From a virus, in UHGV virus genome UHGV-0134758: 29,961 nt of DNA. One strand, given 5' to 3'. A model generated the notes under the pieces. The model searched no databases. It saw only the letters and a list, made by a program, of their open reading frames with translations, and had not been told where the DNA came from. Below are positions 1,904 to 25,158 of the stretch, piece by piece. Positions within the stretch are counted from its first letter, which is position 1. The number at the start of each line of letters is the position of its first letter. The position numbers were made by a program, and so were the translations under genes.

Positions 1904-2343
1904 TTGGCTGGGGTGTATGCGTTCTTGCGTTAGCCTTAGCCGATCGCTATTTGCTAAAACGCAAGGACATCACGCATTTAGAACTTGGTGATGTGGAAAT
2001 TAAACCGGGTTTCATCCGGGTGCCGTTCAAATACCGGTCTAAATTCCCGTTTTTGCGCGGCGCAACGGTCAGATATTGGATCCGCGATGTTCAGAAGCCG
2101 ACGACAGTGATTGAAGGCGAACAACGTTGTTTGACGTCGGCTGAACAGGGCGAAAACAGTGAATGGTTGTACATACCCACTGAATATATGGGTAAAGGAG
2201 AGCGACTGTGGCATTTCAACGTCATGGTTACGCATGGCGACTCGTTCATTAACCCGTTGTATCGGATTTTCCCTGTTACTCAGCAAATCCGCAGAAGTTA
2301 CGTAATAAATCTCGCACAGGATGTGTCAGATGACGAAAAATAA
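1900..2343 (+). CDS. hypothetical protein, possible antiholin (position of P1 lydB)
   Basis: ATGA start/stop overlap with the preceding holin-like gene; hydrophobic N-terminus. Assignment is positional only. Confidence 0.55.
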   Translation: MIGWGVCVLALALADRYLLKRKDITHLELGDVEIKPGFIRVPFKYRSKFPFLRGATVRYWIRDVQKPTTVIEGEQRCLTSAEQGENSEWLYIPTEYMGKGERLWHFNVMVTHGDSFINPLYRIFPVTQQIRRSYVINLAQDVSDDEK

Positions 2344-2932
2344 GTATGCAACGGTCGATTTTGACCAAGTTAATGAAAAGGGGCTGAAATCCCTTATCGC
2401 GGCGATCAATAAAACCGGGGTTACGGTAATTGAGGTTGACTCCAGCAACCGAGCAACAACGAAAGATGGCGTTAAAGTTAAAACCGCAAAGCTGGTTCTT
2501 AACGACGGACAAATTCTTGCCATACAGGTAAACGATACTGGCGATATATCGTCTGTGAAACTGAATGGAAAAGCTATTCCTAACGCTCAGTCGCCGGATA
2601 TCAAGACGCTTGGTACCGTCATGGGACAGGCGGCCCGCAAAAACTCCGCAAAATTCCAGAAATCACTGATCGCCAAAGCGAAGCGTGTAGCCAATCCGGT
2701 AGACAAGAAACCGGCAGTTAAATCCAACTTTCAGCGCCTGCAAGAAGCAAAACAGCGGAATGCTCAGGTGGTTGCCGCTTATAAGTCCGCGCAGAATTCG
2801 GTGTCTTTCAATCAACAGCAGATCACTGATTTGCGGGCGAAGCTGGATAAGGAGACGGGCCGACTCAATAACGAAAAGGCACGGAATGGCGAACTCAAAC
2901 GTCGTCTTAAGCAACTGAAAGCAGGAAATTAA
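2330..2932 (+). CDS. hdf: Hdf-like protein (paralogue of a DarA segment)
   Basis: Shares blocks with the downstream 639-aa protein (AARKNSAKFQKSL vs LAEKNSAKFQRAQ, followed by a basic coiled-coil region). Start placed at the ATG at 2330 (AGG about 9 nt upstream); the track lists 2321. Confidence 0.6.
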   Translation: MTKNKYATVDFDQVNEKGLKSLIAAINKTGVTVIEVDSSNRATTKDGVKVKTAKLVLNDGQILAIQVNDTGDISSVKLNGKAIPNAQSPDIKTLGTVMGQAARKNSAKFQKSLIAKAKRVANPVDKKPAVKSNFQRLQEAKQRNAQVVAAYKSAQNSVSFNQQQITDLRAKLDKETGRLNNEKARNGELKRRLKQLKAGN

Positions 2933-2933
2933 C

Positions 2934-4853
2934 ATGGAACAGTTCAATATCAATAAAGGGGTGACGATCAAGCCTGGGCTTGACGTGCTTCCCCCGCCAG
3001 TGACTGATGATGAATATCGCGCATTAATGGCCGGTGAGGACCGCTATCTGATGACGGAATCCAACACCCTGGAGGAAATCGAGGCTACGTTCTTCTATGA
3101 CACGCCGATCCACTGGTGTGCTACGGATTTACTGGAGGCGATTAGTTCTACTCGTTTGCAGTTACACCGGACCATGCAGGCATTTGTCCGGGCATTGAAC
3201 CAGAAGCTGAATGGCACCGGAATCTCTGCGGGGAGTGATAAAACGGGGGATGTGGCCCAGAGCGGCGCGCGCGCGATCGGCGGTGCTGAAATTGGCCGGG
3301 CACGGAACGTTAACGGGCTGCCGGTCCTGCCAGCCATTATTCCGCTCAGTGATGGTCAGACTATCAGCATTCTGTTTCATAGCCCGACAGCGGAAAACCG
3401 GATCACCAATAGCGATACGCTGGTTGCTTTCCAGTTCTTACTGAATAAAAAAGACGTTACTCACACCGTTGCTCCGATGAGTGGACGTGATATGACGCTG
3501 GCGCAGGTCACCATGAAACTTGCCAACCTTGCAGAGAAAAACTCGGCAAAATTTCAGCGTGCGCAGAAGAAGAAAAAAGCCCTGGTTGATGAAATAACCC
3601 AACTACAGGCTGACAGTGACCAGAAAGAGGATGCCATGAGCGACCTCGCGGATCAGGTGGCAGCGGTAGAAGGGCAGAAGGTAGATCTGGAGCAGAAAAT
3701 TAACGCTGTTGCATCGGAAGCGGATTCTCTTTATGAAGAGAATGAGCGTTTGCAGACGGAGATTGATCAGCTCAATCGCACTGGTGGGCGCGAAACCATT
3801 GCTCCTGCGGGGATGACTGGTGGACACTCTCGCGCGATGACGGATCGCCTTGCAAGTATCAAAAATCGTATGCATATGAACGGGGAAGTGACGCTCAGTA
3901 ATGGTGCATCAATGAAGCAATTCATTGAGGACGGTGAAGGGTATATCCAGTTAACCGATTCGGATGGCAGCGTGTACATGATCAAGGCTAAATCCATACA
4001 GGGTGTGGACATGGCAGAAGCGATCGGCAAGCTGTTTAAAGCCTATAAAGCGGGTAATGTATCGGAATATCTGGTCCAACCAGAAGAACATAAACCGGAA
4101 AACGTCGAACCTGAACCAGCGGAGGATACCGGTAGCTCTTCGCCTGAACCAGAAGTCTCTGTAGGTGCATATCGATATGCCCTGCAAATGCGTCCGGCGG
4201 CCCCTGGCGCAATACCTGAAGGTAACAAAGCAATTCTGCCGCGCCCTGATGAAGGTGACCCGTATTATGAATATGCACGCTACGGCATTGCTACTTACGA
4301 TACCCCGCTTTCTGATCAGCAAATGAGTGAGTACGACCTGAAGTTATTGCCTCGCGAGGATTCTTTCGACTTCCTGGCGAAGACACTTACTAATGGTCCG
4401 TTTGGCAAATATGCACAAAAAGCTCTGGAGCTGGCCACCAGCTCACCAGACGAGTTCCGCGTAATGCTGAAGACTCAGTTTCAAAAAACTTTCCCCAATA
4501 TTGCGTTTCCGGGGGGCGCTGGCACCGAGAAAATGGTGCAGAGCATGATCAATGCATTGCAGGCCGAAGTCGGTGAGATTACTCAGCCAGAACCGGCCCC
4601 GGCACAGCCTGATGAAACGGTTAGCGAAGCAGATGCAGAGGCTAATAAAGCCATTGAATATCTCAATAACGTGATGGATATGCAAAGCACTGACATGGCG
4701 GAGATCCGTAACGCCCGGGGCAATGTCCGGGAAGCGATTGCAGCCCTTCAGGCTGCCGGACGTTTTGAGGAAAACGAAGAGCTGGTTAATGGCGCTGCTC
4801 GCCACCTGGCTGATCTGCTGGTAGCAATCCAGAAAGCGGGGGTAGCGGCATGA
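2934..4853 (+). CDS. darA: DarA-like antirestriction / internal head protein
   Basis: 639 aa, the length I recall for P1 DarA. Start 1 nt after the hdf stop with AGGAAA upstream. Central coiled-coil, acidic Pro/Glu-rich linker. Lies between hdf and two further operon genes as in the P1 dar operon. Confidence 0.75.
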   Translation: MEQFNINKGVTIKPGLDVLPPPVTDDEYRALMAGEDRYLMTESNTLEEIEATFFYDTPIHWCATDLLEAISSTRLQLHRTMQAFVRALNQKLNGTGISAGSDKTGDVAQSGARAIGGAEIGRARNVNGLPVLPAIIPLSDGQTISILFHSPTAENRITNSDTLVAFQFLLNKKDVTHTVAPMSGRDMTLAQVTMKLANLAEKNSAKFQRAQKKKKALVDEITQLQADSDQKEDAMSDLADQVAAVEGQKVDLEQKINAVASEADSLYEENERLQTEIDQLNRTGGRETIAPAGMTGGHSRAMTDRLASIKNRMHMNGEVTLSNGASMKQFIEDGEGYIQLTDSDGSVYMIKAKSIQGVDMAEAIGKLFKAYKAGNVSEYLVQPEEHKPENVEPEPAEDTGSSSPEPEVSVGAYRYALQMRPAAPGAIPEGNKAILPRPDEGDPYYEYARYGIATYDTPLSDQQMSEYDLKLLPREDSFDFLAKTLTNGPFGKYAQKALELATSSPDEFRVMLKTQFQKTFPNIAFPGGAGTEKMVQSMINALQAEVGEITQPEPAPAQPDETVSEADAEANKAIEYLNNVMDMQSTDMAEIRNARGNVREAIAALQAAGRFEENEELVNGAARHLADLLVAIQKAGVAA

Positions 4854-5215
4854 CACTATCAGCTATTGAGTTAATGGATCTCAGCGATAAGTTGGATGCT
4901 CTGATGTCCAAAGCGGCTACCGCGAGTGGCATGGAGTTGCTGGATATCAGCGATGAAATTGACCAGATCATGCAACAGATGGGGTACGGCGCGTCCGGCG
5001 GCAGTAGTGGCGAGGAAAAACAACCTTCGGTACATGATGGTGTGCCAAAACTGGTTGCTGATTTCCTGGCTGATAAATTCGTCGATCAGAGCACAGATGC
5101 ATTTATCGGTACTTTGCAGGACTTGAGTCAATATGTTGGCACATACATCGACCTGGACCAGGTTAAACAGCACACGGCGGCATGGATAGCCGCCAACATT
5201 AAAGAGGCAGCATAA
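4850..5215 (+). CDS. small acidic protein (position of P1 ddrA)
   Basis: ATGA overlap with the darA stop, indicating translational coupling; 121 aa. Positional assignment only. Confidence 0.55.
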   Translation: MTLSAIELMDLSDKLDALMSKAATASGMELLDISDEIDQIMQQMGYGASGGSSGEEKQPSVHDGVPKLVADFLADKFVDQSTDAFIGTLQDLSQYVGTYIDLDQVKQHTAAWIAANIKEAA

Positions 5216-5227: not shown

Positions 5228-8221
5228 ATGAGCTTAAGCGATCAGGTGGTAATGGCCACCAGCATAGAAACGCTGATCGAGCTGCTAAAGAACCTGCCCG
5301 ATTATGGGCGGGTTTCGTATGTGGTGACAGCGAAGGGAGACGAGGTAAAAACGGCGTTTGATATCGTCGATGCCTCAGCTCTTTTGGTATCCAATACTCT
5401 GGATGGGAAAATTAATCCTGACTATCCCCAGGAACTTCAGCCGCGCGACCGGACCCGCGCATCCAGCCTTCTTCAGGTTAACCAGATATCCAAAGATTTG
5501 CGGCCTGCTCAGCTTACTGACTCCGGTTTATCCAGCCATGGCGCGCCGATAATTGGTGAGGACAATGCCGTTGAGTCAGGTAATGGGCGGACCATGGGGA
5601 TCATTAAAGCCTATCAGGACGGTAATGCGGATCGGTATCGGGAGTACCTGATTGAACATGCGACCGAATTCGGCATACGGCCTGAAAGGGTTGAATCAAT
5701 GACGGCTCCGGTACTGGTGCGCCGCCGGTTAACGAAGGTTGACCGTGTTCAGTTTGCCAAGGACTCAAATATTTCTGATCTCCAGGAAATGGCAGCCAGT
5801 GAAAAGGCTTTTGTTGATGCCGACAGCATAACTCCGGCGATGATGGCGCTGTTTAACCCGTCAGAAAGCGGAGATCTGCTTAGCCGCAGTAATGACGCGT
5901 TTATTCGCGGATTCATGACGCAAGTTGGTGCCACACAGGCGGCTGGACTTGTAACTGAAGATGGGCGACCAACACGGCAACTTGTTGACCGGATACAAAA
6001 CGCGATCTTTGCCAAGGCATATATGGATGCGCGCCTGGTAAGGATGGTTGCAGAAGAACCTGATCCGGATATGCGTAATGTTCTGACGGCGCTTAATGCG
6101 GCGGCCAATGATTTTGTCCAGATGCAGGCTTTATCAGGAGAAGCGCACAAGCAGGCTGTGACAACCATCGTTGATGGCATTGAAACAGCGGATAGCCTCG
6201 ATAAAAAGGCGCTGGCGGCATTGAAAGATGCGGTAGACCTGGTAAGGCAATCGAAGGAGTCAGGCCAACATATTACCGATGTTATTGCTCAGGGGGATAT
6301 GTTCAGCGAAACAGCCCCGGAAGTGAAAGCTCTCGCGTTGTTCATCGTCGCGAATAACCGTAGCGCGAAGCGTATGGCCACCGCCTTTAAATTGATGGCT
6401 CAACGTATCAATGATGAGTTACAGCACCAGGGCCAGGCGCTGGGGGATATGTTTGGCGGTGGCGATGTGTCGTTACAGGATATCCTTCGCCAGGTGTCTC
6501 AGGAACTGGAAAACGAAGGCATTCAAGGGATATCCGGCGGTCTTTTCGAGTCCGTTTCCGGCGGTAGTTACAACGGTGTTGCTCCATATACCAGTTTGCT
6601 ATTACATCGGGCATCCGGCATCAAAGACATTATTCATCTGATCAGGCTGCTTTCCCGCACAGATCCCCAGGATGAACAGCTTGTACAAGTGCTTGCGCAT
6701 TTTGTTCGAATGCCTGTTGCCGACGTGAAAAAATGGTGCCGATTATTCGGTATCAGCAATTCGTTACTTCGCGGCTTGTTAAATCACGCATCCTCCCTTG
6801 GGCGCGATGGCTTTGACGAGATAGCGCAGGCGATAAAAAACGGAGATATGCCACCAGCTATTGACTGGTTTTCCATTCGCCCAACCAGGGTGAAAGCATT
6901 CCTTAGCGCGGCGCATTCGGCATCACCATTGGCAGAAATGGTTCAGAGGTTGTCGCTCATATTCACAGACCATAGCGCGTTGGGTGATCTGACTCTGGAC
7001 GAGATGAAAGAAGCCTCCATTCAGTGGGCCGATCAACAAAATGAGGTTAACTCAGACTTCTTGCCAGCATTCAGGAAGGCCGTTAGTAAAGTGGATGATG
7101 CCCGTGGAATTCTGAAAGCATTTAAGGCATTGCAAAGTCGGGTTAATAAACATGTCGGTGATATCGATGGGGTAACGGCGGAAGGCAGGGATATCCTAAA
7201 AGAGCACGGCATAACGCCAGAGTTTATTGATGAGATCAGGACTGATATGCAGCGTGAGGTAGTATCGTCCCTGCAAATCGTAGCCAGAGCGTTGGCGGAT
7301 GCTAATCCGAAGAGTGCGGCCATTGTTAACCGGGTTATTGGTGATATTGAAGCATCGGAGGGCATGGGGGCGCTGAAACTTTTCCTTTCGCGAGCGTTTA
7401 ATCCTAACGGCAATATTCTCCCTGGTATTATTGGTGAGGCTAAAAAGTATGCCAGCGAAGAAGAACTTGAGCATCTTGACCAACTACTTAAGCGATTCTC
7501 ATATAACCCGCAGACACGCTGGCAAATGAATCAGCAAAGTATGGGTTCGGTCCACGAGAAAGTGTTATCTGCCATGAACAGTGCGATCGCCAACTCATCC
7601 GTATCTGAAGAAAAAGCTCTTGAGTGGGCCGACTCTTTTATCACGGAAGAAGTGGAAGAAGCCCGCGCTGGACAGAATGGTGGGATAGACCTGCGCAAGG
7701 AACTTGCTGATATTTATCGCCTGACCGGCGGTAAAATTTCGACCTTATCAAAGGTGGTTCACCACCAGGGAAGGGCATATGCAAATCTAAATGGTGTTGT
7801 TGCTGTCAATTTGAACGATGAAAATGCAAGTGCACTGTGGCACGAGCTGGGTCATCATCTTGAGTACAGTAACCCTGGTTTGTTAGAGAAAGCTAAAGTT
7901 TTTCTTAAGAAAAATATGATTGGAGATAAGCCAGCATTTATAAATACTGGTCAAAAGGGGAAAAAAGAGTGGGTTTTAACTTCATGTCTTAGTGATAGTT
8001 ATATGGGAAGAGTATACCCTGATTTTTCGGTAACACGTTCTGGAAAAATAAACTTCAAAACACCCACTATATCAAAAGCGAGAGCAACGGAAGTCTTCTC
8101 TATGGCGCTTCAGTTATATCATGATAAGGAAGCGTTGGCTGCATCGCTTATGAATGGTGACGGATTGGTCGAATTGTTGTTGGGCGTATCTCAGGAGTTA
8201 AACATTGAAAATTCACGTTGA
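5228..8221 (+). CDS. large dar-operon protein (position of P1 ddrB)
   Basis: 997-aa uninterrupted ORF with start 12 nt after the preceding stop. No catalytic motif recognised by eye. Confidence 0.7.
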   Translation: MSLSDQVVMATSIETLIELLKNLPDYGRVSYVVTAKGDEVKTAFDIVDASALLVSNTLDGKINPDYPQELQPRDRTRASSLLQVNQISKDLRPAQLTDSGLSSHGAPIIGEDNAVESGNGRTMGIIKAYQDGNADRYREYLIEHATEFGIRPERVESMTAPVLVRRRLTKVDRVQFAKDSNISDLQEMAASEKAFVDADSITPAMMALFNPSESGDLLSRSNDAFIRGFMTQVGATQAAGLVTEDGRPTRQLVDRIQNAIFAKAYMDARLVRMVAEEPDPDMRNVLTALNAAANDFVQMQALSGEAHKQAVTTIVDGIETADSLDKKALAALKDAVDLVRQSKESGQHITDVIAQGDMFSETAPEVKALALFIVANNRSAKRMATAFKLMAQRINDELQHQGQALGDMFGGGDVSLQDILRQVSQELENEGIQGISGGLFESVSGGSYNGVAPYTSLLLHRASGIKDIIHLIRLLSRTDPQDEQLVQVLAHFVRMPVADVKKWCRLFGISNSLLRGLLNHASSLGRDGFDEIAQAIKNGDMPPAIDWFSIRPTRVKAFLSAAHSASPLAEMVQRLSLIFTDHSALGDLTLDEMKEASIQWADQQNEVNSDFLPAFRKAVSKVDDARGILKAFKALQSRVNKHVGDIDGVTAEGRDILKEHGITPEFIDEIRTDMQREVVSSLQIVARALADANPKSAAIVNRVIGDIEASEGMGALKLFLSRAFNPNGNILPGIIGEAKKYASEEELEHLDQLLKRFSYNPQTRWQMNQQSMGSVHEKVLSAMNSAIANSSVSEEKALEWADSFITEEVEEARAGQNGGIDLRKELADIYRLTGGKISTLSKVVHHQGRAYANLNGVVAVNLNDENASALWHELGHHLEYSNPGLLEKAKVFLKKNMIGDKPAFINTGQKGKKEWVLTSCLSDSYMGRVYPDFSVTRSGKINFKTPTISKARATEVFSMALQLYHDKEALAASLMNGDGLVELLLGVSQELNIENSR

Positions 8222-11064: not shown

Positions 11065-11087
11065 AATGTATATCTTTGAAACGTAGC

Positions 11088-11755: not shown

Positions 11756-12002
11756 ACTCCGGCAGCTCCGCCGACTTTCGACAATGAAGTTATCGCTGGC
11801 GGCGATAGTTTTTGACTCGATTTTCATGGCGGTATATGTGCTCAATGAGACGTGGCCACTGGAACCGCTATTATATGCCGGGCTTCGGCTGTGCCTGACA
11901 TTTTTGAGCATGGCTGCAAGATTGATGCAGCAGAAAGAAACCGCTTCAGATTGCCCACGTCGCGCGGTGCGCAAATATATGGCACGCAGACGAAGGCGAT
12001 AA
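11742..12002 (+). CDS. small putative membrane protein overlapping the lyz 3' end
   Basis: 86 aa with two hydrophobic segments (LSLAAIVFDSIFMAVYVL, LLYAGLRLCLTFLSMAA) and an Arg-rich C-terminus. No recognisable homology; could be spurious. Confidence 0.35.
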   Translation: MSMNKLRQLRRLSTMKLSLAAIVFDSIFMAVYVLNETWPLEPLLYAGLRLCLTFLSMAARLMQQKETASDCPRRAVRKYMARRRRR

Positions 12003-12013
12003 TAGTTAACGAG

Positions 12014-12041
12014 AACCCCGGCAGCCGCCGGGGTTATTTTG
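12014..12041. terminator. terminator hairpin between convergent genes
   Basis: aaccccggc-agcc-gccggggtt followed by attttgggtgg on the plus strand; lies between the 86-aa ORF stop and the stop of the minus-strand protease candidate. Confidence 0.55.
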
Positions 12042-12046
12042 GGTGG

Positions 12047-14777
<2,731 letters not shown>

Positions 14778-14843
14778 TTAATTAGAATAATTCGCATCGT
14801 GTTTGAACGGAATTTAACACTAGTCACTTGTTAAGGATTACCA

Positions 14844-17800
14844 ATGAACAAGCTATCTATGGGGTTGTTTCGCTGTTCAAGTGTCAGCGAAATATTGAAA
14901 TACATTAGGGCAATAACATCTCATCGAGCGCCGATTAGATACGGCGTGGAAAAGGTGGAAGGCAAAAGCTATGACCGGCTGCGCCGGGAGGCGAATCAGA
15001 AGGCGATAGATTTGCTTAATTCGCTGGTGGACGGCGCGACACTGACAGATGAACAGCGCCAGATCCTGGCCGGGTACACTGGTGAAGGCGGCATTGGCGG
15101 GTCCGTCTCCGAATATTACACACCAAAGCCTATCGCTGAAGGCGTCTGGGAGATCATGAAGCTCTATGGCGCGGACGTAGGTAACACTCTGGAACCATCG
15201 GCGGGCACCGGCGTTTTTAATGAGACAAAACCGGTTGGTACGGTGATGACCGCGACTGAGATCAGCAGTGTTTCCGGTCGTATAAACCAGCTGTTACATC
15301 CGGAAGACAGCGTACAGATTTCCCCGTTCGAACAACTCGCTGTAAGCACGCCTAACGATTCATTCGACCATGTTGTGGGTAACGTTCCGTTCGGCGGTCG
15401 TGATAACACACGCAACATCGATAAGCCTTACGCAGAAGAAACGGATATGGGGTCTTACTTCATGCTCCGCATGCTGGACAAGATAAAGCCAGGCGGATTC
15501 ATGTGTGTGATTGTGCCGCCGTCCATTGTTTCAGGTTCAAACATGAAGCGGTTACGCCTGCGCCTATCACGGAAAGCTGAATTTCTTGGTGCCCACCGCT
15601 TGCCTACCGGTACTTTTGACGCAAACGGGACCAGTACGGTCGTTGACGTGGTGCTGATGCGCAAACATCCGGCGGAGATGGCTGAGAAAATCCCCCTGGT
15701 GGATGAAGGCACTCTTGAATCGGCAAATGTGCTTTGGCCAACGTTTATTTCTGGCAAGTGGTTTGAAAAGGACGGCCGCCGGTTTGTTCATGGCACCCAG
15801 GAGAAGGGATTCCAGGGGCGTATTGAGGTTCGTGCCGACGGGCAGATTGATAACCAGGCTCTTAAAGCGAAGCTGATTCATCGTTTCGAAAGTCGTATCG
15901 ACTGGTCTTTGCTCGATATGGCTGAACCGTCACCGACCGCAGACGTTGTTGGTGAAGGGGAAATACGCCTGATTAATGGCGTATGGCAAAAATATGCTGG
16001 TGGTCGCTGGATTGAATCTGATGCCGGGAAGGAGCTGAAGATTGATGTTGCCAGTTATGGCGCGGATAGCTGGGAGGCTCTTCAGCGTAACCTGACTACA
16101 ACAGAAGGCCGTCTCGGCATGACATTTACCCAGATGGCAAATGTCCGCGATAAGTACACCACATCAATCAGCGACGATATGGTGCAGCTGGTGGACTGGA
16201 TTAACAGCCAGCCTGAAAAATACCGTGAACGCTTGTATCGCGGGGCGATGATTGGCCGGATGTTAATTGAATATCAGGATATGAAGGCCGCCGGGCATAG
16301 TGCTGAACAAATCGAACAGCAGCGCCTTTCCCTGGTATCCCGTTTGCAGGCAGAGATTGACCGTTTTGGTAACCCCGGTCGCGGTCCGATAGCGAAATTA
16401 TCGGGGAGCGGTGCGCGCGCCTGGTTTGCTTTCCGTGGTGCAATTAAGCTGGATGGCACTATTTCTGACGAGCTGACAGGAAAGCTGGTTACGCATGATT
16501 CCAGCGCCAGTTATGACTCCACCAGCTATCAGGACACCCTGCGTTATCTCTACAGTGATCTCACTCGCGATCCAATCCAGCTCGATGATTTCCGCCTTGC
16601 GTTTACCGGCGAACTGCCAGCCAGTGATGACGAGTTGCTTAATTTATTGGCCAGCACCCCTGGCATTGCGGTTTCACCGTATGGCGGGATTGTTCCGTTT
16701 GCCCGCGCCACCAGCGGCGACATTAACGAGATAGTGGCTCCAAAACAGGAATTCCTCGCCACGCTCCCCGACGGTCCAGTAAAGAACAACGTCCTTAATC
16801 AGCTGGCAGCGATCGAAGAGAAGCGCATCAAGACGCCAGCAGAGAATATCCGGTTTAAGCTCAATAGCCGTTGGTTTGACCGTTCCGTCATCCTGGAGTT
16901 TTTGCAGGAAAACGGCTATCCGGATCTGCGCTATGTGCAGTCAGTGCAGCTGGAAGGCGACGAAATGGTTTCTGACACCTATCACGGTGGTGATGGTCTG
17001 TTCGTCGGACACCGATACGGTGTCGTCCAGCGCAAGGATAAAGAAACAGGCGAGATCCGCTACGAGTGGGACCGTAAATCAGGTGAAAACGCGACCGGGT
17101 TCCCGGCACAGCTGGAAAAGTATCTCAATGGTGCGCGTATCGGTGGCAAAGATAGCGCGACGGCGAACGGCTACCGCGAGCAGATGGCACTGCTTGAGGA
17201 CCAGTTCAATAAGTGGATCAAGACGCACGATCGCTACGATGAGCTGGTTGCCAAATACAACGATGTGTTCAATAGCAATATCCCGTATGAACACTCTGGC
17301 GATCCGCTTGGGTTGAAGGGATTAAGCGGTAAGCGCCAGCCATTTGATTACCAGAATAGCGAGGTGCGCCGACTGTCCGAAGATGGGCGCGGCATCCTGG
17401 GCTTCGGCACCGGGCTGGGTAAAACCACGACCGCGCTGGCGCTTGAGGCGTTCAACTATGAGAACGGTCGCTCCACCCGTACTGCGTATGTAGTGCCTAA
17501 ATCAGTGCTGGAAAACTGGTATTACGAAGCAAAAGAATTCCTGAGTGAAGAGGCATTCAGTAACTACCTGTTCGTCGGTCTTGATGTGCTGATGGATGGC
17601 GATCAGATTCGCCAGGTGCCGGTGCTCGATGAGAACGGTAAACCAGTTCTTGGTACTGATGGCACTCCAGTTATGCGCGATGCTCTTAAGCTGGCAGATG
17701 AAGCCACTATCACGGCGCGGATGAACGCGATCCCGCACTCAAATTACCGTGCAGTCGTGTTTACCAAAGAACAATACGCCCGCATTCCGCTACGTGATGA

Positions 17801-20800
17801 CACCGTAGATGAGCATGCACAGGATATGCTTTATGACTTCGTTGCCGCCGGGCGCGTAGCCAGCGCAATGGACTCCGACTCCCACCGCAAAGAGGCCGCG
17901 CGTCGCCGGGTATTATCGGAGTATTCAGATACCGGCACCGAAAAAGCAGAGAAGTATCCGTACTTTGAGGATATGGGCTTCGATAGTGTGATCGCCGACG
18001 AAGGTCACAACTACCGCAATAGCTATAAAAATGGTCGCGAAGCGTCACAACTGGCCTATCTGCCCACCAGCGCGGTGGCGCAATCGGCGCGAGATATGGC
18101 AATCAAAAACGCGTACCTGATGAAAAAGAATGGCGGGCGCGGACCGGTTCTCCTGACTGCAACGCCAGTCGTTAACACCCCGATCGATGCATACAACATG
18201 CTTTCTCATGTTCTGCCGAAGGAATACTGGCAGAAGATGGGGATCTACGGTCCTGATGACTTCGTTAAATTCTTCGGCAAGACCAGGCTGGAAACGGTAC
18301 AGAAAATCAGCGGTGAAGTTGAAGAAAAAATGGCGCTGGTGGGTTTTGAAAACCTTGATGCGCTGCGCGGCATATTCCATCGCTGGACAACGCTTAAAAC
18401 GGCGGAAGACGTTAAGGATACCGTGGAGATCCCGGAGCTGGACGAACACCAGCAGGATGCACCACTTACTGAAGAACAACTGGCGGCGTATGAAGAATTG
18501 CGTCAGCAGGCAGAAGCGGCAGCCAAAGCCAACAATGGCGTAACGACCTCGGTCAATGAAGACGGCGTGATTGAGCACGAGAAAGCCCGTCCGATCTTCT
18601 TAATAATCAGGGATATGGACCGCGTATGTACTGACATGGACCTGTACTATCGCCGGATCACCTATCGTTTCCTGCCGGAGTACGCCGATGCGGTGCAGCA
18701 GCTGGCGGACAGTTTGCCTAAACAAGCCACCAGCGAAGACGACGACAGTGATGATTCTATCACGCAGCAATCGCAATACTCCCTGATAGATAAGGGCGAG
18801 TTTATTCAGTTGCAGGTTCCGGAAGCGTTCGAGCAGGAAGTGAATAAGCGCCTGGCCAGGTTTGGCATTGACGAACAGACCGTTACTCACCCCGTTACGC
18901 CCAAATACGCGAAGCTGATCGCCACGCTGAAGGAGTTTTTCCCGGAAGGTAAGCAAATCATCTTCACCGATGAAAAAACGCAGCACCAGAAGCTCAAGCG
19001 CATTATCTGCAATGCTCTTAACCTTGAACCTTCAAAGGTGGGGATCCTGAATGCTCAGACGGTTGCCGAGGCAGGCAAAACCGGTAAGAAACTGAAAGCG
19101 GTTAAACCGCCGAAAGAGTTACCGGATGAACCAACAGATGCACAGATAGCGAAATACAACGAGCAAATGGCTCTGTATGACGCCTATATCGCGCAGCAAA
19201 ATGAAATGTCGTTGGGCGGTCTGGAAAAGATTGCAGCAGACTTCCAGGAGGGCCGGACTCCGATCATCATCTGCAACAAAAAGGCAGAGGTGGGTATCAA
19301 CCTGCATCGAGGAACGACTGACATCCATCATCTGACGTTGCCGTGGACTCCAGCCAGTATCGCACAACGTAACGGTCGCGGTGCCCGAGTTGGCTCCAAC
19401 CGTGCAAGCGTTCGCGTTCACTACTACTGCGGCAAGGGTTCTTTCGATGAATACCGACTGAAGACGCTGAAGCGTAAAGCAGGCTGGATCTCCGATATCC
19501 TCCGTTCAGATAAGTCAGAAATGGAGAACGCCGACGCCAACGATATGGTCGAAATGCAGATGTATACCGCGAAGGATGACGGCGAACGTCTGGCAATGAT
19601 GCAGGTTCAAATGGATAAGGCGAAAGCCGCGCAACGCGCTCGCCAGAAAGAACAGGCTACTATCGACCTTCAGAACTACATCAAGGCGCAGCACGCAGCT
19701 GGCGAGGATGTGGAGGTACTTACCGCTGAATTAGAGCGAAGCAAAGCGGAACTTGAAAAGACCACCGCCGAGGTAGCTAAATTCAAACAGGCGGTAATGG
19801 CCAAAGCAGCTGATAACGCAGACTGGAAGGCCCGCTGGGGGAGTGTCCATCACACAGACCGTATGTTGTTAGCACAGTATCGCGCGTCGTTGAAAAGCGC
19901 CATTCAGCGCAAGGCTAATATCTCTCAAGCCATCTCCCGCTATGAGAAATTATTGAACCGTACTCAGAAGGCCGCGACGGATATCAAACGCCTGCGCCCG
20001 CTGGTGGAGGATGCAATAAATAAAGGCATTCTGGATGTTGATCCTGACCTGGTTAACCATGCGAGTGAGTTCCTTGTTATCGGCGATCGCTCATGGCGTG
20101 TAGGCCAATACTACGATTGTGCCGGTGATATCGTTCGCATTAAGTCGCTGGACTTCGACAGCCAGCGCGCAGACGTGGAGATCATCTTTACCTTAAAAGG
20201 CACCAAATCGGGTAACTGGGATGTGAAGACGCTGGATAAACAGGTTGATGTAACTCCCGATGAAGATGCTGTTATGCAGAAAATCAGTGGTGGCGTCTCC
20301 ATCGCCGGGATTAACGACATCATTTCCTGTGACGATTTCTACCGTTTCCAGCAGCGCGGCATGATCAAAATCACTGACTCATACGGCGTTCAGACTACAG
20401 AGTCAGGCTATAGCATTGATTTTGTTGGTACCTATACGGACCCGCTGAAGCATGCGGTTTACCCGGATCGCCGTGACGGCGCGCTGAAGTCGTCAATTGC
20501 AAAATGGGTGCTTGGTATGATGTTGGAAGGGAATAACCGCCAGATCCGTTCGGCAGAAACATTCCTGGTTGAACTGTTTGGCTCCAATTATGGCGATGTA
20601 ATCGCGTCATACGGAGATACGCTATCCCCTGAAGCAATTCAGGAGAAAATAGCGGATGCGATCGCCAGAATGCCGGAAAAAACAAGCCAGGGGGCTACTC
20701 GTAACGGGGATTCTGAACTTGAAGTCACCAATGCCATTTTTGGTACCAATGAGTTCCGGGCGTCAGATTATGAGATCACCACAGCACAGTTTGGCACCAT

Positions 20801-21611
20801 TGGCATTTACAGTAATAAAGACGAGATCAAGCAGGCAATGGACGCAGCAAGTGCGCGCATTGCAGCAGAACGGAAAGCCAATCTGAATCATGCAGTCGCC
20901 GCGCTGACTCAATCGTGGGTAACAGCAATCAGGGAGGCCGCCACCACAGGAAAAATCACACCGGCAATTGCGGATGTCGTAAACGACGGCTCTAAATTTA
21001 TGGATGCCTATAAAATGGATGCGGTGCAGTTGCCATCAGCCTATGGCCAACTCAGCTATCGCATGACCTACAACCTGGTATCAATGTTTACTGACCTTGC
21101 CATCCTTGGGCTGGTGGACCTTAACGAGGTTACGCCGGAATTACTCAGCATGCGCAAGAATCATGTGGAGATATTGCACAGAATTAACACGGTACTTGCC
21201 GGGCGCATCGATGAAGAGAAACAGGCAGACGCTGATCGGATAAACCTGGCCCTTGGCAACATCACGGAGGAAGAAATTGCCGCCAGAAACGAGAAACAAG
21301 AAGAGTTATCATCAATACAGGGTGATGCCACCAGCATAGCTCAGTCTCTTGGTCTGAATTATCGCGTATCCACTGCCGACCTGAAGATGATGTACGCACC
21401 AAAATTCGCCGCTGGCGAGGTATTTGGGCTTCAGGAGGCGTCCGGCATGAAAGGCATTCTTTTCCGTGCGAAAGACGCAATCAAGGCGAAATTCGGCGCT
21501 CGCTGGCTGCCAGCGAAGGCAAAGAACAGCGATTTTCCGGGTAACTGGTGGATTATCGAGACAAAACACAACGTGGCGGACGTTCTGGCCGTCATCCAAC
21601 AATACGCATAA
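14844..21611 (+). CDS. darB: DarB-like antirestriction protein: N-terminal N6-adenine methyltransferase domain fused to a superfamily-2 helicase
   Basis: 2255 aa. SAM motif LEPSAGTGVF (nt 15189..15218) and catalytic-type GNVPFGG (nt 15378..15398). Walker A GFGTGLGKTT (approx. residue 850), DEGH (approx. residue 1050) and helicase motif VI QRNGRGARVGS (approx. residue 1510). Length matches P1 DarB from memory. Confidence 0.9.
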   Translation: MNKLSMGLFRCSSVSEILKYIRAITSHRAPIRYGVEKVEGKSYDRLRREANQKAIDLLNSLVDGATLTDEQRQILAGYTGEGGIGGSVSEYYTPKPIAEGVWEIMKLYGADVGNTLEPSAGTGVFNETKPVGTVMTATEISSVSGRINQLLHPEDSVQISPFEQLAVSTPNDSFDHVVGNVPFGGRDNTRNIDKPYAEETDMGSYFMLRMLDKIKPGGFMCVIVPPSIVSGSNMKRLRLRLSRKAEFLGAHRLPTGTFDANGTSTVVDVVLMRKHPAEMAEKIPLVDEGTLESANVLWPTFISGKWFEKDGRRFVHGTQEKGFQGRIEVRADGQIDNQALKAKLIHRFESRIDWSLLDMAEPSPTADVVGEGEIRLINGVWQKYAGGRWIESDAGKELKIDVASYGADSWEALQRNLTTTEGRLGMTFTQMANVRDKYTTSISDDMVQLVDWINSQPEKYRERLYRGAMIGRMLIEYQDMKAAGHSAEQIEQQRLSLVSRLQAEIDRFGNPGRGPIAKLSGSGARAWFAFRGAIKLDGTISDELTGKLVTHDSSASYDSTSYQDTLRYLYSDLTRDPIQLDDFRLAFTGELPASDDELLNLLASTPGIAVSPYGGIVPFARATSGDINEIVAPKQEFLATLPDGPVKNNVLNQLAAIEEKRIKTPAENIRFKLNSRWFDRSVILEFLQENGYPDLRYVQSVQLEGDEMVSDTYHGGDGLFVGHRYGVVQRKDKETGEIRYEWDRKSGENATGFPAQLEKYLNGARIGGKDSATANGYREQMALLEDQFNKWIKTHDRYDELVAKYNDVFNSNIPYEHSGDPLGLKGLSGKRQPFDYQNSEVRRLSEDGRGILGFGTGLGKTTTALALEAFNYENGRSTRTAYVVPKSVLENWYYEAKEFLSEEAFSNYLFVGLDVLMDGDQIRQVPVLDENGKPVLGTDGTPVMRDALKLADEATITARMNAIPHSNYRAVVFTKEQYARIPLRDDTVDEHAQDMLYDFVAAGRVASAMDSDSHRKEAARRRVLSEYSDTGTEKAEKYPYFEDMGFDSVIADEGHNYRNSYKNGREASQLAYLPTSAVAQSARDMAIKNAYLMKKNGGRGPVLLTATPVVNTPIDAYNMLSHVLPKEYWQKMGIYGPDDFVKFFGKTRLETVQKISGEVEEKMALVGFENLDALRGIFHRWTTLKTAEDVKDTVEIPELDEHQQDAPLTEEQLAAYEELRQQAEAAAKANNGVTTSVNEDGVIEHEKARPIFLIIRDMDRVCTDMDLYYRRITYRFLPEYADAVQQLADSLPKQATSEDDDSDDSITQQSQYSLIDKGEFIQLQVPEAFEQEVNKRLARFGIDEQTVTHPVTPKYAKLIATLKEFFPEGKQIIFTDEKTQHQKLKRIICNALNLEPSKVGILNAQTVAEAGKTGKKLKAVKPPKELPDEPTDAQIAKYNEQMALYDAYIAQQNEMSLGGLEKIAADFQEGRTPIIICNKKAEVGINLHRGTTDIHHLTLPWTPASIAQRNGRGARVGSNRASVRVHYYCGKGSFDEYRLKTLKRKAGWISDILRSDKSEMENADANDMVEMQMYTAKDDGERLAMMQVQMDKAKAAQRARQKEQATIDLQNYIKAQHAAGEDVEVLTAELERSKAELEKTTAEVAKFKQAVMAKAADNADWKARWGSVHHTDRMLLAQYRASLKSAIQRKANISQAISRYEKLLNRTQKAATDIKRLRPLVEDAINKGILDVDPDLVNHASEFLVIGDRSWRVGQYYDCAGDIVRIKSLDFDSQRADVEIIFTLKGTKSGNWDVKTLDKQVDVTPDEDAVMQKISGGVSIAGINDIISCDDFYRFQQRGMIKITDSYGVQTTESGYSIDFVGTYTDPLKHAVYPDRRDGALKSSIAKWVLGMMLEGNNRQIRSAETFLVELFGSNYGDVIASYGDTLSPEAIQEKIADAIARMPEKTSQGATRNGDSELEVTNAIFGTNEFRASDYEITTAQFGTIGIYSNKDEIKQAMDAASARIAAERKANLNHAVAALTQSWVTAIREAATTGKITPAIADVVNDGSKFMDAYKMDAVQLPSAYGQLSYRMTYNLVSMFTDLAILGLVDLNEVTPELLSMRKNHVEILHRINTVLAGRIDEEKQADADRINLALGNITEEEIAARNEKQEELSSIQGDATSIAQSLGLNYRVSTADLKMMYAPKFAAGEVFGLQEASGMKGILFRAKDAIKAKFGARWLPAKAKNSDFPGNWWIIETKHNVADVLAVIQQYA

Positions 21612-21644
21612 CAGGAGCGCCCGGTTCGCCGGGCGTCGCATAAT

Positions 21645-22085
21645 ATGGCCACACTATCTGATACAATAAAACCGAATAAAACATATCTTGAGGCGGTACT
21701 CCGTACAGCGTTGTTAGGAAAGACAGAAGACGAATACGTTGATTTCTTCCTATCAGGGCTACGCGGGCGATTACTGAAAAACCCCCGCCTGTACCGCAGC
21801 TATGGCCCATACTGGCCGGAAATTAAAAAATTATTACTGGAGCGCGGTTATGGTAATTTCGGTCGTCTCGTTGACCGTGACGTTCGCAAAATTTACCGTT
21901 ATGACCGCCCGGCGCTAACACTCATAGCCGCGACGCTCTACAGCCAGGAGCGTTTTGATAATGGTCAGATATACTCAGCCTGGCATTTACTGCCAGTGCC
22001 TGAAGAAGTTGACGACCAGGACTATGAGTTTGAGTCTTACGATTTGGAAGTTGAAGCCTTGGCACAGGCTGGAGAGAAAACTTGA
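21645..22085 (+). CDS. hypothetical protein (position of P1 ulx)
   Basis: 146-aa ORF starting 34 nt after darB; preceded by a GC hairpin with a UUCG-type loop. Confidence 0.5.
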   Translation: MATLSDTIKPNKTYLEAVLRTALLGKTEDEYVDFFLSGLRGRLLKNPRLYRSYGPYWPEIKKLLLERGYGNFGRLVDRDVRKIYRYDRPALTLIAATLYSQERFDNGQIYSAWHLLPVPEEVDDQDYEFESYDLEVEALAQAGEKT

Positions 22086-22330
22086 AAAAGCGATACTACA
22101 CAGTAAAGCATGGGACGCTACGGGCATTACAAGAGTTTGCTGACAAGCATAACGTTGAGGTGCGCAGGGAAGGGGGAAGTAAAGCTCTGCGCATGTACCG
22201 TCCGGACGGGAAATGGCGTACGGTCGTCGATTTCAAAACTAACAGTGTTCCCCAAGGTGTCCGCGATCGGGCATTCGAAGAATGGGAGCAGATCATCATA
22301 GATAACGCATTGCTTCTGAATGCTGATTAA
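22082..22330 (+). CDS. small protein (position of P1 lxc)
   Basis: 82 aa, TTG start overlapping the previous stop (TTGA), GGAGAG 5 nt upstream. Confidence 0.45.
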   Translation: MKKRYYTVKHGTLRALQEFADKHNVEVRREGGSKALRMYRPDGKWRTVVDFKTNSVPQGVRDRAFEEWEQIIIDNALLLNAD

Positions 22331-22382
22331 TAATCATTTAAAGCCCATATGATATGGGCTTAAACAACAGGATCGATATACA

Positions 22383-23423
22383 GTGTTAGTTAAATATATA
22401 GGCGAGAGTTATATGGATAAACCTTGGCCGGGCATGCACATTAGAACATCTTGTCTGGAGGATGGTTTCTTTAGAGCAACGCAACCAAAGTATCTTAATG
22501 ATCCGTCGAGTGAGTCGCGACTTCTTCCATTTTTTAATAAATTTTCACCAGCCGATTACGCATGGGCTAGAAATGAATTTAAGAAAATGCAACGAGATCC
22601 ATCTTATGTCCCATCTATACAAGAGTTAGAGTATTATTTAAAACCTTGCGGGAAACGATACGGAGAGGATTTTCCACACTTGTTAATCAATGAAGGTTTT
22701 ACCTCAATGGATTCATATGATGAATCTAAACTCCAAGAAATAGTAACGTACCTTAACGATTATTTAGTAGAAGCCGTAAGCTGTCATCTTGGTGTGTTCT
22801 CTCTATCAAAAAGTGATTGCAATCTACACATGTGGACTCATTATGCATCGATAGGAAAGGGGTTTGCTGTAGTTTTCGATGAAACACACGATTTTTTCAA
22901 AATATATCGGCCGTGTGATGTTAGTTATAATCCAGAAGATAGAGCATCTGTAACCTATTATAAAGGCGCTGTGCGATTTAATGGCTATCCTGCGCCATCG
23001 AGGAATATAGATATAAAGAATAAAGATAATACATTGCATGGGATCTTAAATCGAGATTCAGTTCGCGAGCTTTTTATTAATAGGCTTCTTTATACAAAAG
23101 GTGAAGAGTGGCTTCCTGAAAATGAAAGTAGAATTATTTTTCCATTGGCTGATTGCGAGAGAAAAATAGGAAGTATTGTCTCTCCATCGATTGATGACTG
23201 CCTATTAAATGAGTATCCTGATGTTTTTCATGACTATCATGAAATTAACTTAAAGAAAATTCCTTTTTCTGCATTCAAGCAAATTACCTTAGGGTATAAC
23301 ATGACTGAAAAAGATAAAAATATAATTTTAGATAAAGTTAGTTCGAATAAAGAATTGTCTCACGTCAACGTATTACATTCAAAACTTGATATATACGGAA
23401 AGGTTGTGGTTAAGCCCATGTAA
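22383..23423 (+). CDS. DUF2971-like protein of unknown function; candidate single-gene anti-phage defence / abortive-infection cargo
   Basis: Markedly AT-rich 346-codon ORF (alternative ATG at 22413). Motifs FRATQPKYLNDPSSE and CNLHMWTHYASIGKGFAVVFD resemble the two DUF2971 signature blocks as I recall them. Isolated between the lxc-position ORF and the convergent mat-position ORF. Confidence 0.7.
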   Translation: MLVKYIGESYMDKPWPGMHIRTSCLEDGFFRATQPKYLNDPSSESRLLPFFNKFSPADYAWARNEFKKMQRDPSYVPSIQELEYYLKPCGKRYGEDFPHLLINEGFTSMDSYDESKLQEIVTYLNDYLVEAVSCHLGVFSLSKSDCNLHMWTHYASIGKGFAVVFDETHDFFKIYRPCDVSYNPEDRASVTYYKGAVRFNGYPAPSRNIDIKNKDNTLHGILNRDSVRELFINRLLYTKGEEWLPENESRIIFPLADCERKIGSIVSPSIDDCLLNEYPDVFHDYHEINLKKIPFSAFKQITLGYNMTEKDKNIILDKVSSNKELSHVNVLHSKLDIYGKVVVKPM

Positions 23424-23455
23424 TAATACGCTTATGTCTACACTTCATGATAAAT

Positions 23456-23477
23456 ACCTTCCTTAACTTAGGAAGGT
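23456..23477. terminator. hairpin (accttcc-ttaactta-ggaaggt) between convergent genes
   Basis: Lies between the stop of the 346-aa ORF (23423) and the stop of the minus-strand ORF (23521); the following sequence is T-rich. Confidence 0.4.
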
Positions 23478-23520
23478 TAGTTGTAGGTTTACGCAGAAAG
23501 TAACAAATAACCTTCGTAGG

Positions 23521-24162
23521 TTATAGAATATTATTCTTTCCGGTGAGTATTCCTTGAGGAACTCTAGCGCATCCCATAATTTGAGTTTTCTTGATGATGT
23601 TTATATATGACGCTATCAGCGATGAGTCATCACGACTATCCACTTCACAAGCCATTGCCCTGATGTAGTCGGCGCTGGCAACGTTGTTGTATTCCGTCGC
23701 AAAGCAACAGAGTAACGTCAGAACATGCTCTGTCGTTATTTCGCTCCAGTTGATGTTGAAAAATTCATCGCCTTTTTTATCGTGTTCGGAATCGAAGATG
23801 CTTTGGTGGAGGATGTATTTGCCGGATTCCTTGCGCGGTAACTTGATTGCTTTCTGGCGTTCCAGCTCCTTATAAATCTGCATTGCCTCAATTAGTACCG
23901 GCCTGCCGTTCATGAAGGGATCGCGCAACCTTACACGCTGGCCAACTCGACCAGTAATAAAGCTGTTTTCCTCTTCCACCAGCACGATAAAACCCTTTTC
24001 CTCTTTTTCTCGCAATTCGCGCAGCAGCTGGAGTTCCATGTCGCGGCGGCGTTCAGGGTAGCTGGTCCGCTCAGCCATTATCAGCTCGTTATTGATCCAT
24101 GCAGCAGTCATTGACGCCGGTTTGCCGACGCTCATCGAAACAACGCATATTTTCTTATCCAT
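23521..24162 (-). CDS. hypothetical protein (position of P1 mat, particle maturation)
   Basis: ATG at 24162 with AGGGG 5 nt upstream (the track's GTG start is at 24189). The late-promoter-like motif lies about 140 nt upstream. Confidence 0.5.
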   Translation of the reverse strand: MDKKICVVSMSVGKPASMTAAWINNELIMAERTSYPERRRDMELQLLRELREKEEKGFIVLVEEENSFITGRVGQRVRLRDPFMNGRPVLIEAMQIYKELERQKAIKLPRKESGKYILHQSIFDSEHDKKGDEFFNINWSEITTEHVLTLLCCFATEYNNVASADYIRAMACEVDSRDDSSLIASYINIIKKTQIMGCARVPQGILTGKNNIL

Positions 24163-24350
24163 AGCGCCCCTACAAAAAAGAAAAGCCACCAGCGGCGGCT
24201 TAGCAATACAACTGAAGGTAGCACCCGGTACTCAGACTGTGCCGTCCATGGAATATTTGAAAAGGGATCCATCCGTACCGGGCGTGTGATGATTCTGACT
24301 GAAGTCACTTGTCAGTTGTCAATCATTTATCATTAAAAATAATATATTTA

Positions 24351-24911
24351 TTAGTGCATGATGTTTGCCATCTCATAGGCGTCAGCCAGTAACTCCATCT
24401 CTGACTTGTTCAGCAGGGTGAATTCTTTCTTGCCTCCAACCACACCATCGGCATGAACAGGGACCAGCCAGGGGTATTTTGCTCTTACTTCAGCCGGTGC
24501 TGCATGCTGGTGGTGCCATCTACAAAGTGGCAATTGCTTTTTATGACAACCCGGCGCGGTGCGACCGGCGATATGGTGCAGAGACACTTCATTAGATATT
24601 ACTCCATGCATATAGCAGGCAATGCAGGGGAGAGCGCCAAGAGCATTGGCGATGCGCCGTTCCTCCGCCGTTGGTGTTCTCCCCTTCAAGCCACGAGATT
24701 TTATTTTTACCGCGCTTTTCCGCGTTTTGCTGGCTGGTGGGCGCTCTTTCTGTTTAGCGATACGGCGGTCGATAGTATCCCGCATTTTCTGATATTGAGA
24801 TTCTCGCCAGACCGGATCAGCCAACTTCTCCCGTTGCCGAGCGATCGCTCGTTCTCTGGCTGCCTTCTGCCACTTGCGGCACTGTTCAATTTTTTGTTCG
24901 ATTGTTTTCAT
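24351..24911 (-). CDS. ref: Ref-like HNH endonuclease (recombination enhancement function)
   Basis: 186 aa; Cys/His-rich HNH-type core CIACYMHGVISNEVSLHHIAGRTAPGCHKKQLPLCRWHHQ and a basic N-terminal region. Matches P1 Ref from memory; C1-operator-like sites upstream. Confidence 0.8.
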   Translation of the reverse strand: MKTIEQKIEQCRKWQKAARERAIARQREKLADPVWRESQYQKMRDTIDRRIAKQKERPPASKTRKSAVKIKSRGLKGRTPTAEERRIANALGALPCIACYMHGVISNEVSLHHIAGRTAPGCHKKQLPLCRWHHQHAAPAEVRAKYPWLVPVHADGVVGGKKEFTLLNKSEMELLADAYEMANIMH

Positions 24912-24917
24912 ATGGTC

Positions 24918-24943
24918 AAAAAAAAGGCGGCCTAATGGCCGCC
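24918..24943 (-). terminator. terminator-like hairpin plus U8 tract in the ref leader
   Basis: On the minus strand ggcggcc-atta-ggccgcc is followed by eight T, ending 6 nt before the ref ATG. Confidence 0.5.
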
Positions 24944-24996
24944 TATGATGTCAAGGAGTTAAGTAATGGCACGTCTTCGTAGTTGACAAAAACTGC

Positions 24997-25026
24997 GGAT
25001 CAATTATAGCAATAAATTAGAGCAAT
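24997..25026 (-). promoter_or_regulatory. pair of C1-operator-like 17-mers overlapping divergent promoter elements
   Basis: caataaattagagcaat (14/17) and ggatcaattatagcaat (12/17). Perfect TATAAT on the minus strand and TTGACA on the plus strand (approx. 24983). Coordinates are approximate. Confidence 0.4.
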
Positions 25027-25158
25027 TGTAGATATTTCATTTATCGATAATCACATTTTTTCTCTTCAGTGCCTGTGTGCTATACTCCTTCTTGATTGAT
25101 TGGATGCGGAATACAAACCCGCTCTTTTGTGCAGCCTGGCTCCTTGCCAGGCTTTTTT

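Follow-up and report, generated by a model that had tools for sequence, protein, structure and literature searches.

The virus genome UHGV-0134758 contains one open reading frame (ORF) that is far longer than any other around it, and this raises the questions of what its product is, how that product may act, and how the small gene directly behind it is translated. The stretch of DNA analysed here, called the window in what follows, comprises 29,961 nucleotides (nt). Its longest ORF by far runs from 14844 to 21611 on the plus strand, with an ATG start, 2,255 codons for amino acids (aa), and a TAA stop, exactly as a first, sequence-only reading of this DNA had given it. We conclude that this ORF is darB, in intact form, and that it belongs to a P1-like (Punavirus) phage-plasmid; we put the probability of this at about 95%. 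The gene is already known, and the copy is an ordinary one. The only mildly new item at the locus is the junction upstream of the next gene, ulx, where a conserved order of GGAG, a hairpin, and the AUG is found.

The agreement with P1 extends over the whole gene. At the nt level, darB of the window is 98.1% identical to P1 darB, with 100% of the gene covered, and a megablast search against phage genomes gave 97.7 to 98.2% identity, again with 100% coverage, to darB of P1, P7, SJ46, RCS47, and other punaviruses. At the protein level, 2,229 of the 2,255 residues are the same as in P1 DarB (98.8%), and the two proteins are equal in length and align without gaps. The 127 nt differences from P1 result in only 26 amino acid replacements, which indicates that the gene is intact and under purifying selection. 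PHROG 1685 covers residues 1 to 2255 of the product (profile positions 1 to 2278). The neighbours also follow the P1 order, with the divergent prt and pro genes upstream and ulx and lxc downstream. The identification as DarB, for which an alignment with the P1 protein had been suggested as a check, is therefore confirmed. Five of the 26 replacements (L1894S, I1901V, S1903L, T1906V, and V1909T, from the window to P1) are clustered within 16 residues, aa 1894 to 1909 (window positions of about 20523 to 20570). The clustering suggests that this part of the C-terminal globular region is a variable surface loop or has undergone recombination over a short patch.

In P1, DarB is a head-packaged protein of about 250 kDa that is required against the EcoK and EcoB type I restriction systems (PMC9024508, PMC12810830, PMC12707154). 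The protein is produced late in infection. It was detected in the head by mass spectrometry, at about 40 copies per virion, and is incorporated after all other Dar components (PMC9024508). Hdf and DarA enter the head first and are a prerequisite for all other Dar proteins (PMC9024508, PMC12810830), whereas Ulx and DdrB assist the incorporation of DarB (PMC9024508, including its Table 1 for Ulx; PMC12810830). DdrA is also counted among these helpers. The Dar proteins exit the head together with the DNA and act in cis, shielding from type I systems only the DNA that was packaged with them, and protection against EcoB and EcoK requires DarB, Ulx, and DdrB (PMC12810830, PMC12707154). The first 30 residues of P1 DarB suffice to bring a reporter into the capsid (PMC9024508). 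In the window, this capsid-targeting segment (14844..14933, plus strand) is identical to that of P1 at 29 of 30 positions, and the sole change, V8L, is conservative. The product had been called a virion-delivered antirestriction enzyme. The antirestriction role stands by orthology with P1 DarB, and the term enzyme is a deduction from the motifs described below.

The five motifs quoted in the sequence-only reading are all located in the DarB ORF, and a domain search, on which that reading had staked its claim, recovers both a methyltransferase and a helicase, with all matches above the Pfam cut-offs. The gamma-class N6-adenine methyltransferase (MTase) domain lies at 15111..15713 on the plus strand. 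Pfam N6_Mtase matches aa 145 to 290 (E value of 6e-8), the Eco57I MTase model matches with an E value of 2e-7, and a sequence search of the PDB returned type I M subunits, including EcoKI HsdM (2y7c, 2ar0, and 7eew). Motif I of this domain is the S-adenosylmethionine (SAM) loop LEPSAGTGVF (aa 116 to 125, nt 15189 to 15218), and motif IV is NVPF (aa 180 to 183), which lies within GNVPFGG (aa 179 to 185, nt 15378 to 15398). By inspection, two further elements were found ahead of the SAM loop (15081..15125, plus strand): GEGGIGGS (aa 80 to 87), which fits the described GxGU motif of LPD36, and YYTP (aa 91 to 94), the TP motif that caps the N-terminal helix of the MTase. Both motifs have been described for the DarB family (PMC5512222). 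In the copy of the Pfam library used, no model matches residues 1 to 115.

The MTase domain is followed by a middle region without a recognised domain (aa 291 to 832, approximately; 15714..17339, plus strand), in which no Pfam family scored above threshold. Behind it lies an SNF2-type helicase/translocase core of superfamily 2 (SF2), with a large insert between its two lobes (17340..19433, plus strand). Pfam SNF2-rel_dom matches aa 849 to 911 (E value of 2e-10; 40.7 bits against a cut-off of 24.9), and ResIII (E value of 2e-5) and Helicase_C (aa 1455 to 1517, E value of 3e-6) also exceed their gathering thresholds. This core carries the Walker A motif GFGTGLGKTT (aa 853 to 862, nt 17400 to 17429), DEGH (aa 1052 to 1055; nt 17994 to 18008 including the preceding A), and motif VI, QRNGRGARVGS (aa 1508 to 1518, nt 19365 to 19397). 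In the PDB sequence search, the C-terminal lobe matches an SNF2/Rad54 helicase, and the core also shows weak matches to the DISARM DrmD, DpdE, and ZorD helicases. When the N-terminal 115 aa, the middle 546 aa, and the C-terminal 725 aa were searched in isolation, nothing scored above the Pfam threshold.

We also looked at how well the motifs are kept in 39 full-length relatives of 2,000 to 2,570 aa. Of these, 36 have motif IV in the form N[VPIL]P[FY], 38 have DExH, and 36 have motif VI, and the C-terminal regions of these same proteins are only 17 to 35% identical. The fact that catalytic motifs are kept in such divergent relatives favours an enzymatic function over a purely structural role, and from this conservation we infer that DarB probably has a real enzymatic mechanism. 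Iyer et al. (2017) proposed translocation-coupled methylation of the entering DNA for DarB (PMC5512222). The SNF2-type motor would carry DarB along the duplex as it enters, and that DNA would be modified by the EcoKI/TaqI-like gamma-class adenine MTase. Alternatively, the motor might displace or stall restriction complexes ahead of cleavage. The motifs and domains suggest to us that DarB acts as a motor combined with a methyltransferase.

It is conceivable, although we consider it unlikely, that DarB protects the DNA without any catalysis. The DNA would then be coated or shielded by about 40 copies of a DNA-binding protein of 250 kDa, or these would act on it as decoys, and the motifs would merely be DNA-binding scaffolds. 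The strictly cis-acting protection did prompt an occlusion hypothesis (reviewed in PMC12707154), DarA and DarB have been described as binding the transferred DNA (PMC5512222), and no activity of DarB has been demonstrated (PMC11109961). However, forty molecules are too few to cover about 100 kb of DNA, and the SAM loop, the NxPF tetrad, Walker A and DExH, and motif VI are kept while the C-terminal regions have fallen to about 20 to 30% identity.

The last third of DarB had been described as a long coiled-coil C-terminal region, and this is correct for only a part of it. An AlphaFold2 model of aa 1531 to 2255, based on a 28-sequence alignment that included distant representatives, reached a mean predicted local distance difference test (pLDDT) score of 85.1; an earlier run with a 7-sequence alignment gave a pLDDT of 49.9 and was discarded. 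The model shows three long, coiled-coil-like helices of 41 to 57 residues at about aa 1579 to 1726 (19578..20021, plus strand), followed by a small beta domain and then by more mixed alpha/beta domains. The helical stretch accounts for about 150 of the approximately 725 residues. The other 510 or so (aa 1743 to 2255, approximately; 20070..21608, plus strand) are globular in the model, with mixed helices and strands, and form a family-specific region whose fold was not recognised. With the undivided C-terminal model as the query, so that domain-level matches may be missed, Foldseek returned only generic antiparallel coiled coils from the PDB (such as SMC, JetC, and HlyD; best E value of 0.08, template modelling [TM] scores of at most 0.12) and coiled-coil or tape-measure noise from BFVD (TM scores of at most 0.13). 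A full HMMER scan with the C-terminal 725 residues gave 103 matches among 1.84 billion cluster representatives. The divergent ones (22 to 35% identity) are all proteins of 2,000 to 2,570 aa that carry the match at the same C-terminal position. As the matches are confined to DarB-type proteins, this region is specific to a narrow DarB-type family. A word-indexed search with the C-terminal 696 aa found only near-identical proteins, fragments, and deletion chimeras. The family-specific third probably serves packing, ejection, or DNA contact.

In public assemblies, there are also ORFs in which foreign N termini are fused to the DarB C terminus (proteins P0005, P0010, P0015, P0008, and P0001). The fused N termini are of the Pfam LPD/DarA type, of the DdrB-ParB type, or baseplate-like, and other such ORFs are internally deleted forms of DarB. 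One chimera, P0005, is present on 12 contigs, the longest of 88 kb. These chimeras seem to have arisen by deletion in degraded P1-like plasmids.

The remaining question is how ulx is translated. A stable GC hairpin with a UUCG-type loop had been noticed ahead of the ORF in the ulx position, and it is indeed there (21618..21635, plus strand), supported by folding and by conservation. This hairpin, CGCCCGG-TTCG-CCGGGCG, is 18 nt long and has a 7-bp GC stem (8 bp with a G-U pair), a UUCG loop, and a stability of about -17 kcal/mol. It starts 7 nt past the darB stop codon, and 9 nt lie between its end and the ulx ATG at 21645. Directly 5' of it stands AGGAG (21613..21617, plus strand), which can be read from the sequence as the putative Shine-Dalgarno (SD) element of ulx, with 27 nt from its end to the ATG. 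The hairpin is identical in P1, and Cronobacter phage JK004 and phage D6 have a like arrangement with other loop and stem sequences.

Ulx homologues of down to 42% identity led us to 158 darB-ulx junctions in phage genomes, IMG/VR, and GTDB genomes, and these comprise 41 distinct junctions. A GC stem of 6 to 8 bp with a loop of 3 to 5 nt, often UUCG or GNRA, is present in 39 of the 41, and 38 of the 41 have a GGAG at -1 to +2 nt from the stem. The distance from the stem to the ATG is 5 to 9 nt, or 14 nt in one clade. The two exceptional junctions are a partial match and L157, which has no hairpin but carries AAAGG near the ATG. A MAFFT alignment of whole junctions did not keep the structures in register, and base pairs were counted instead in an ungapped, loop-centred alignment of 21 distinct 24-mers. 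Standard pairs occupy 99.3% of the cells, a fraction that is biased upward because the alignment is centred on predicted loops, which must be held against the structural interpretation; in shuffles the fraction is 62.2%, and none of 500 shuffles reached 99.3%. When the 3' partners were slid as a control, only 31 to 53% of the cells paired. The covariation score is 0.846, compared to 0.202 in shuffles, and both sides have changed in six of the seven pairs. On the opposite strand, the G-U pairs would turn into A-C mismatches, which places the structure in the sense RNA.

We also considered an intrinsic terminator and rejected it. The 3' flank reads TCGCATAATATGG on the plus strand and CTCCTGTTATGCG on the minus strand, a terminator scan did not return the hairpin, and none of the 39 hairpin variants has a T-run. 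As T-runs are missing on both strands, the hairpin does not qualify as an intrinsic terminator.

A conserved tetraloop hairpin would bring AGGAG from 27 nt to about 9 nt of the ulx AUG. From the sequence comparisons we therefore see a slightly less than even chance that ulx is translated from a split ribosome-binding site (RBS) that spans the hairpin. If so, the ribosome that finishes darB must melt the hairpin, which must then refold to present the SD element, and the synthesis of Ulx, and hence the packaging of DarB, could be tied to the translation of darB. In the literature searched, we found no description of a ulx hairpin or RBS, which is not proof of novelty, and neither is annotated in the P1 record.

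The split RBS competes mainly with a role of the hairpin in mRNA stability, although the two roles are compatible with each other. In this alternative, which we regard as possible but rather unlikely, the hairpin is a 3' stabiliser of the darB mRNA or a barrier to its processing, or it acts between the two genes as a factor-dependent attenuator. Exonucleases are typically held up by GC-rich hairpins capped with UNCG or GNRA tetraloops, and the position just past the darB stop codon would suit such a function. In P1, the annotated sigma-70 promoters within ulx drive lxc and not ulx itself, so that ulx is probably cotranscribed with darB, which would also fit an attenuator or a stabiliser. On the other hand, a stabiliser does not account for GGAG abutting the stem in nearly all distinct junctions, mostly with 5 to 9 nt to the ATG and usually with no other purine-rich element, nor for the fact that the sole hairpin-free junction, L157, has an AAAGG of its own near the ATG. 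The lack of a T-run on both strands argues against an intrinsic terminator.

Combining the two halves of the analysis, we tentatively propose that the junction is a previously undescribed, conserved split RBS that perhaps ties Ulx synthesis to darB translation and that DarB is possibly a processive, sequence-independent "methylate on entry" enzyme. Several points, besides the rival role of the hairpin, speak against the enzymatic mechanism and the split RBS. The assignment of AGGAG as the ulx SD element is itself a proposal. In the literature searched, no biochemical activity of DarB has been reported, and its mechanism has been termed undefined or unclear (PMC11109961, PMC12707154). Motif IV reads NVPF, whereas the canonical form is NPP(Y/F). 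In addition, the antirestriction obtained with cloned darB turned out to be an effect of the DNA, in which Chi and EcoKI sites trigger ClpXP-dependent restriction alleviation, and it survived stop codons and mutated catalytic residues (PMC11109961). An effect that survives catalytic mutation provides no support for catalysis. It is the 11 Chi sites of P1 darB that underlie this plasmid-induced restriction alleviation (PMC11109961). The darB gene of the window has the same number, as Chi (GCTGGTGG) is enriched in it to 11 sites (6 on the plus and 5 on the minus strand), compared to about 0.12 expected per strand, and there are 27 Chi sites in the whole 30-kb window.

A last reading, in which the ORF encodes a defence enzyme of a cell or plasmid, either a fused type I/III/ISP-like restriction-modification (R-M) enzyme or a DISARM/Dpd-type helicase, is extremely improbable and effectively already refuted: it can point to weak hidden Markov model matches to DrmD, DpdE, ZorD, type I MTase, and PglX models and to the RefSeq labels "N-6 DNA methylase" and [quoted passage not shown] but the best NCBIfam matches reach 43 bits against cut-offs of 500 to 1100 (for DrmD, 43 against 610) and cover only generic helicase and MTase cores, Pfam scans of DarB detected no nuclease, specificity, or target recognition domain, and both its sequence and its place between the portal gene and ulx make the ORF the orthologue of P1 darB.

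The other dar genes are present as well. The window is collinear with P1 over three stretches, namely, lydA to ddrB (1507 to 8213, 96.3% identity), ssb to lxc (10540 to 22330, 98.0%, with per-gene identities of 96 to 100%), and mat to lox (23639 to 26987, 97.2%). The DarA operon does lie upstream of darB on the same strand, as had been stated, with hdf, darA, ddrA, and ddrB at 2321 to 8221. The individual genes, all on the plus strand, are hdf (2321..2932; 201 of 203 residues identical to P1 Hdf), darA (2934..4853; 625 of 639), ddrA (4850..5215; 117 of 121), and ddrB (5228..8221; 941 of 992 aligned residues). About 6.6 kb, with the porin gene described below, ssb, lyz (lysis genes), pro, and prt, separates this operon from darB. 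The ORF in the ulx position is ulx itself (21645..22085, plus strand; 146 aa), since its product is identical to P1 Ulx at 144 of 146 residues and belongs to PHROG 1629, "Ulx-like anti-restriction." All six dar genes are intact, with 95 to 99% protein identity to P1. The idea that darB is the second half of a two-part antirestriction system has to be given up, as Dar consists of six virion proteins (Hdf, DarA, DdrA, DdrB, DarB, and Ulx).

The intergenic region before darB differs from that of P1 by one base. It contains a predicted sigma-70 promoter, PdarB (14758..14788, plus strand; TTGTCT ... TAGAAT), which is homologous to the annotated P1 promoter position for position and was mapped from the P1 feature at 14915 to 14945 of the compared P1 stretch with an offset of -157. 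An SD-like AAGGA (14833..14837, plus strand) can be read in the sequence 6 nt before the darB ATG. The late promoter LPpro, which serves pro and prt on the minus strand, lies inside a near-perfect palindrome just ahead of darB, TTAACACTAGTCACTTGTTAA (14805 to 14830). A late promoter of the Lpa type reading into darB was considered and rejected. The plus-strand sequence TAGTCACTT followed by AGGATT matches poorly and would leave the transcript without a leader, and the plus-strand copy of the LPpro -22 box matches at 7 of 9 positions and has no credible -10 element.

Outside the collinear stretches, the window departs from P1 at several places. Between lxc and mat (22331 to 23638), an ORF at 22383 to 23423 (plus strand) encodes a 346-aa DUF2971 protein that is matched by the PADLOC model PDC-S31 (E value of 3e-16). 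In P1, the same slot holds the EcoP1I type III mod and res genes together with IS5, and in the matched region of related plasmids SIR2, GNAT, DUF2971, or type III R-M genes are found. The lxc-mat slot may be a variable defence hotspot. At 8729 to 10539, an ORF (9219 to 10331, plus strand) for a 370-aa Gram-negative porin (Pfam Porin_1, E value of 5e-148) replaces isaB, IS1, and isaA of P1. The porin gene is annotated as ompC in related plasmids, and an OmpC-like porin carried by a phage-plasmid could affect superinfection or receptor availability. The ORF in the hxr position (8205 to 8759, plus strand) encodes 184 aa, compared to 102 aa in P1, with 65% identity over 88 residues and 77% identity at the DNA level, and is the most divergent gene shared with P1 in the region. 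At the left end, positions 1 to 1506 are not collinear with the cin/lydC region of P1. They contain ORFs at 63 to 518 (plus strand) and 482 to 1045 (minus strand), and here we found a tail-fibre assembly protein (Caudo_TAP) and, on the opposite strand, a hexapeptide-repeat acyltransferase.

Genes of this kind are common. We found darB in 776 of 5,426 complete Escherichia coli genomes, with 825 of the 846 matching places on plasmids, and 877 PLSDB plasmids match the window. In itself, darB is a textbook P1 gene, carried by a P1-like plasmid in roughly every seventh complete E. coli genome. Its conserved motifs and the confident C-terminal model provide concrete targets for mutagenesis directed at the mechanism of DarB. 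The GGAG-hairpin-AUG arrangement at the darB-ulx junction is a cheaply testable candidate for a split initiation region of the T4 gene 38/25 type in a different phage lineage. The candidate defence gene of the DUF2971/PDC-S31 type in place of EcoP1I illustrates what may be a variable defence slot in P1-like plasmids.

How does this locus compare with known systems? The closest is P1 DarB itself (YP_006479.1; NC_005856, 10469 to 17236), together with the proteins of P7, SJ46, and RCS47, which are alike in length, in motifs, in the neighbours prt, pro, ulx, and lxc, and in the five partners. The window differs from P1 in the 26 DarB replacements, in the porin gene where P1 has isaB/IS1/isaA, and in the DUF2971 gene where P1 has EcoP1I mod and res. 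On a wider scale, DarB is the archetype of the methylase-helicase dyad of the "polyvalent proteins," which consists of LPD36, an EcoKI/TaqI-like gamma-class adenine MTase, and a SWI2/SNF2 ATPase (PMC5512222). DarB of the window has the same order of MTase and helicase, with a candidate GxGU motif and the TP motif before the MTase and with SNF2 inserts in the helicase. The SAM loop stands before N-x-P-(F/Y), YYTP lies ahead of both, and the SNF2-type ATPase is C-terminal to the MTase. There is no difference in kind, and only the C-terminal 700 residues or so are particular, being common to a narrow set of 2,000- to 2,570-aa proteins only. Type I (EcoKI HsdM) and type III (Mod/Res) R-M systems likewise join a gamma-class adenine MTase core to an SF2 motor, and translocation-coupled action is the analogy with these systems that has been proposed for DarB (PMC5512222). 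Unlike them, DarB has no detected nuclease or specificity module, is delivered by the virion, and acts for the invading DNA.

For the junction, the comparison is with T4 genes 38 and 25, where a hairpin cuts the spacing between the SD element and the AUG from 22 and 27 nt to 5 and 11 nt, respectively (PMC3014915). The ulx junction belongs to another phage group, another gene, and another hairpin sequence, its hairpin follows the upstream stop codon by 7 nt, and its split initiation region is a candidate drawn from sequence. Nevertheless, it shares with the T4 genes an over-long spacing (27 nt), a stable hairpin that would leave an effective distance of 9 nt, and phylogenetic conservation.

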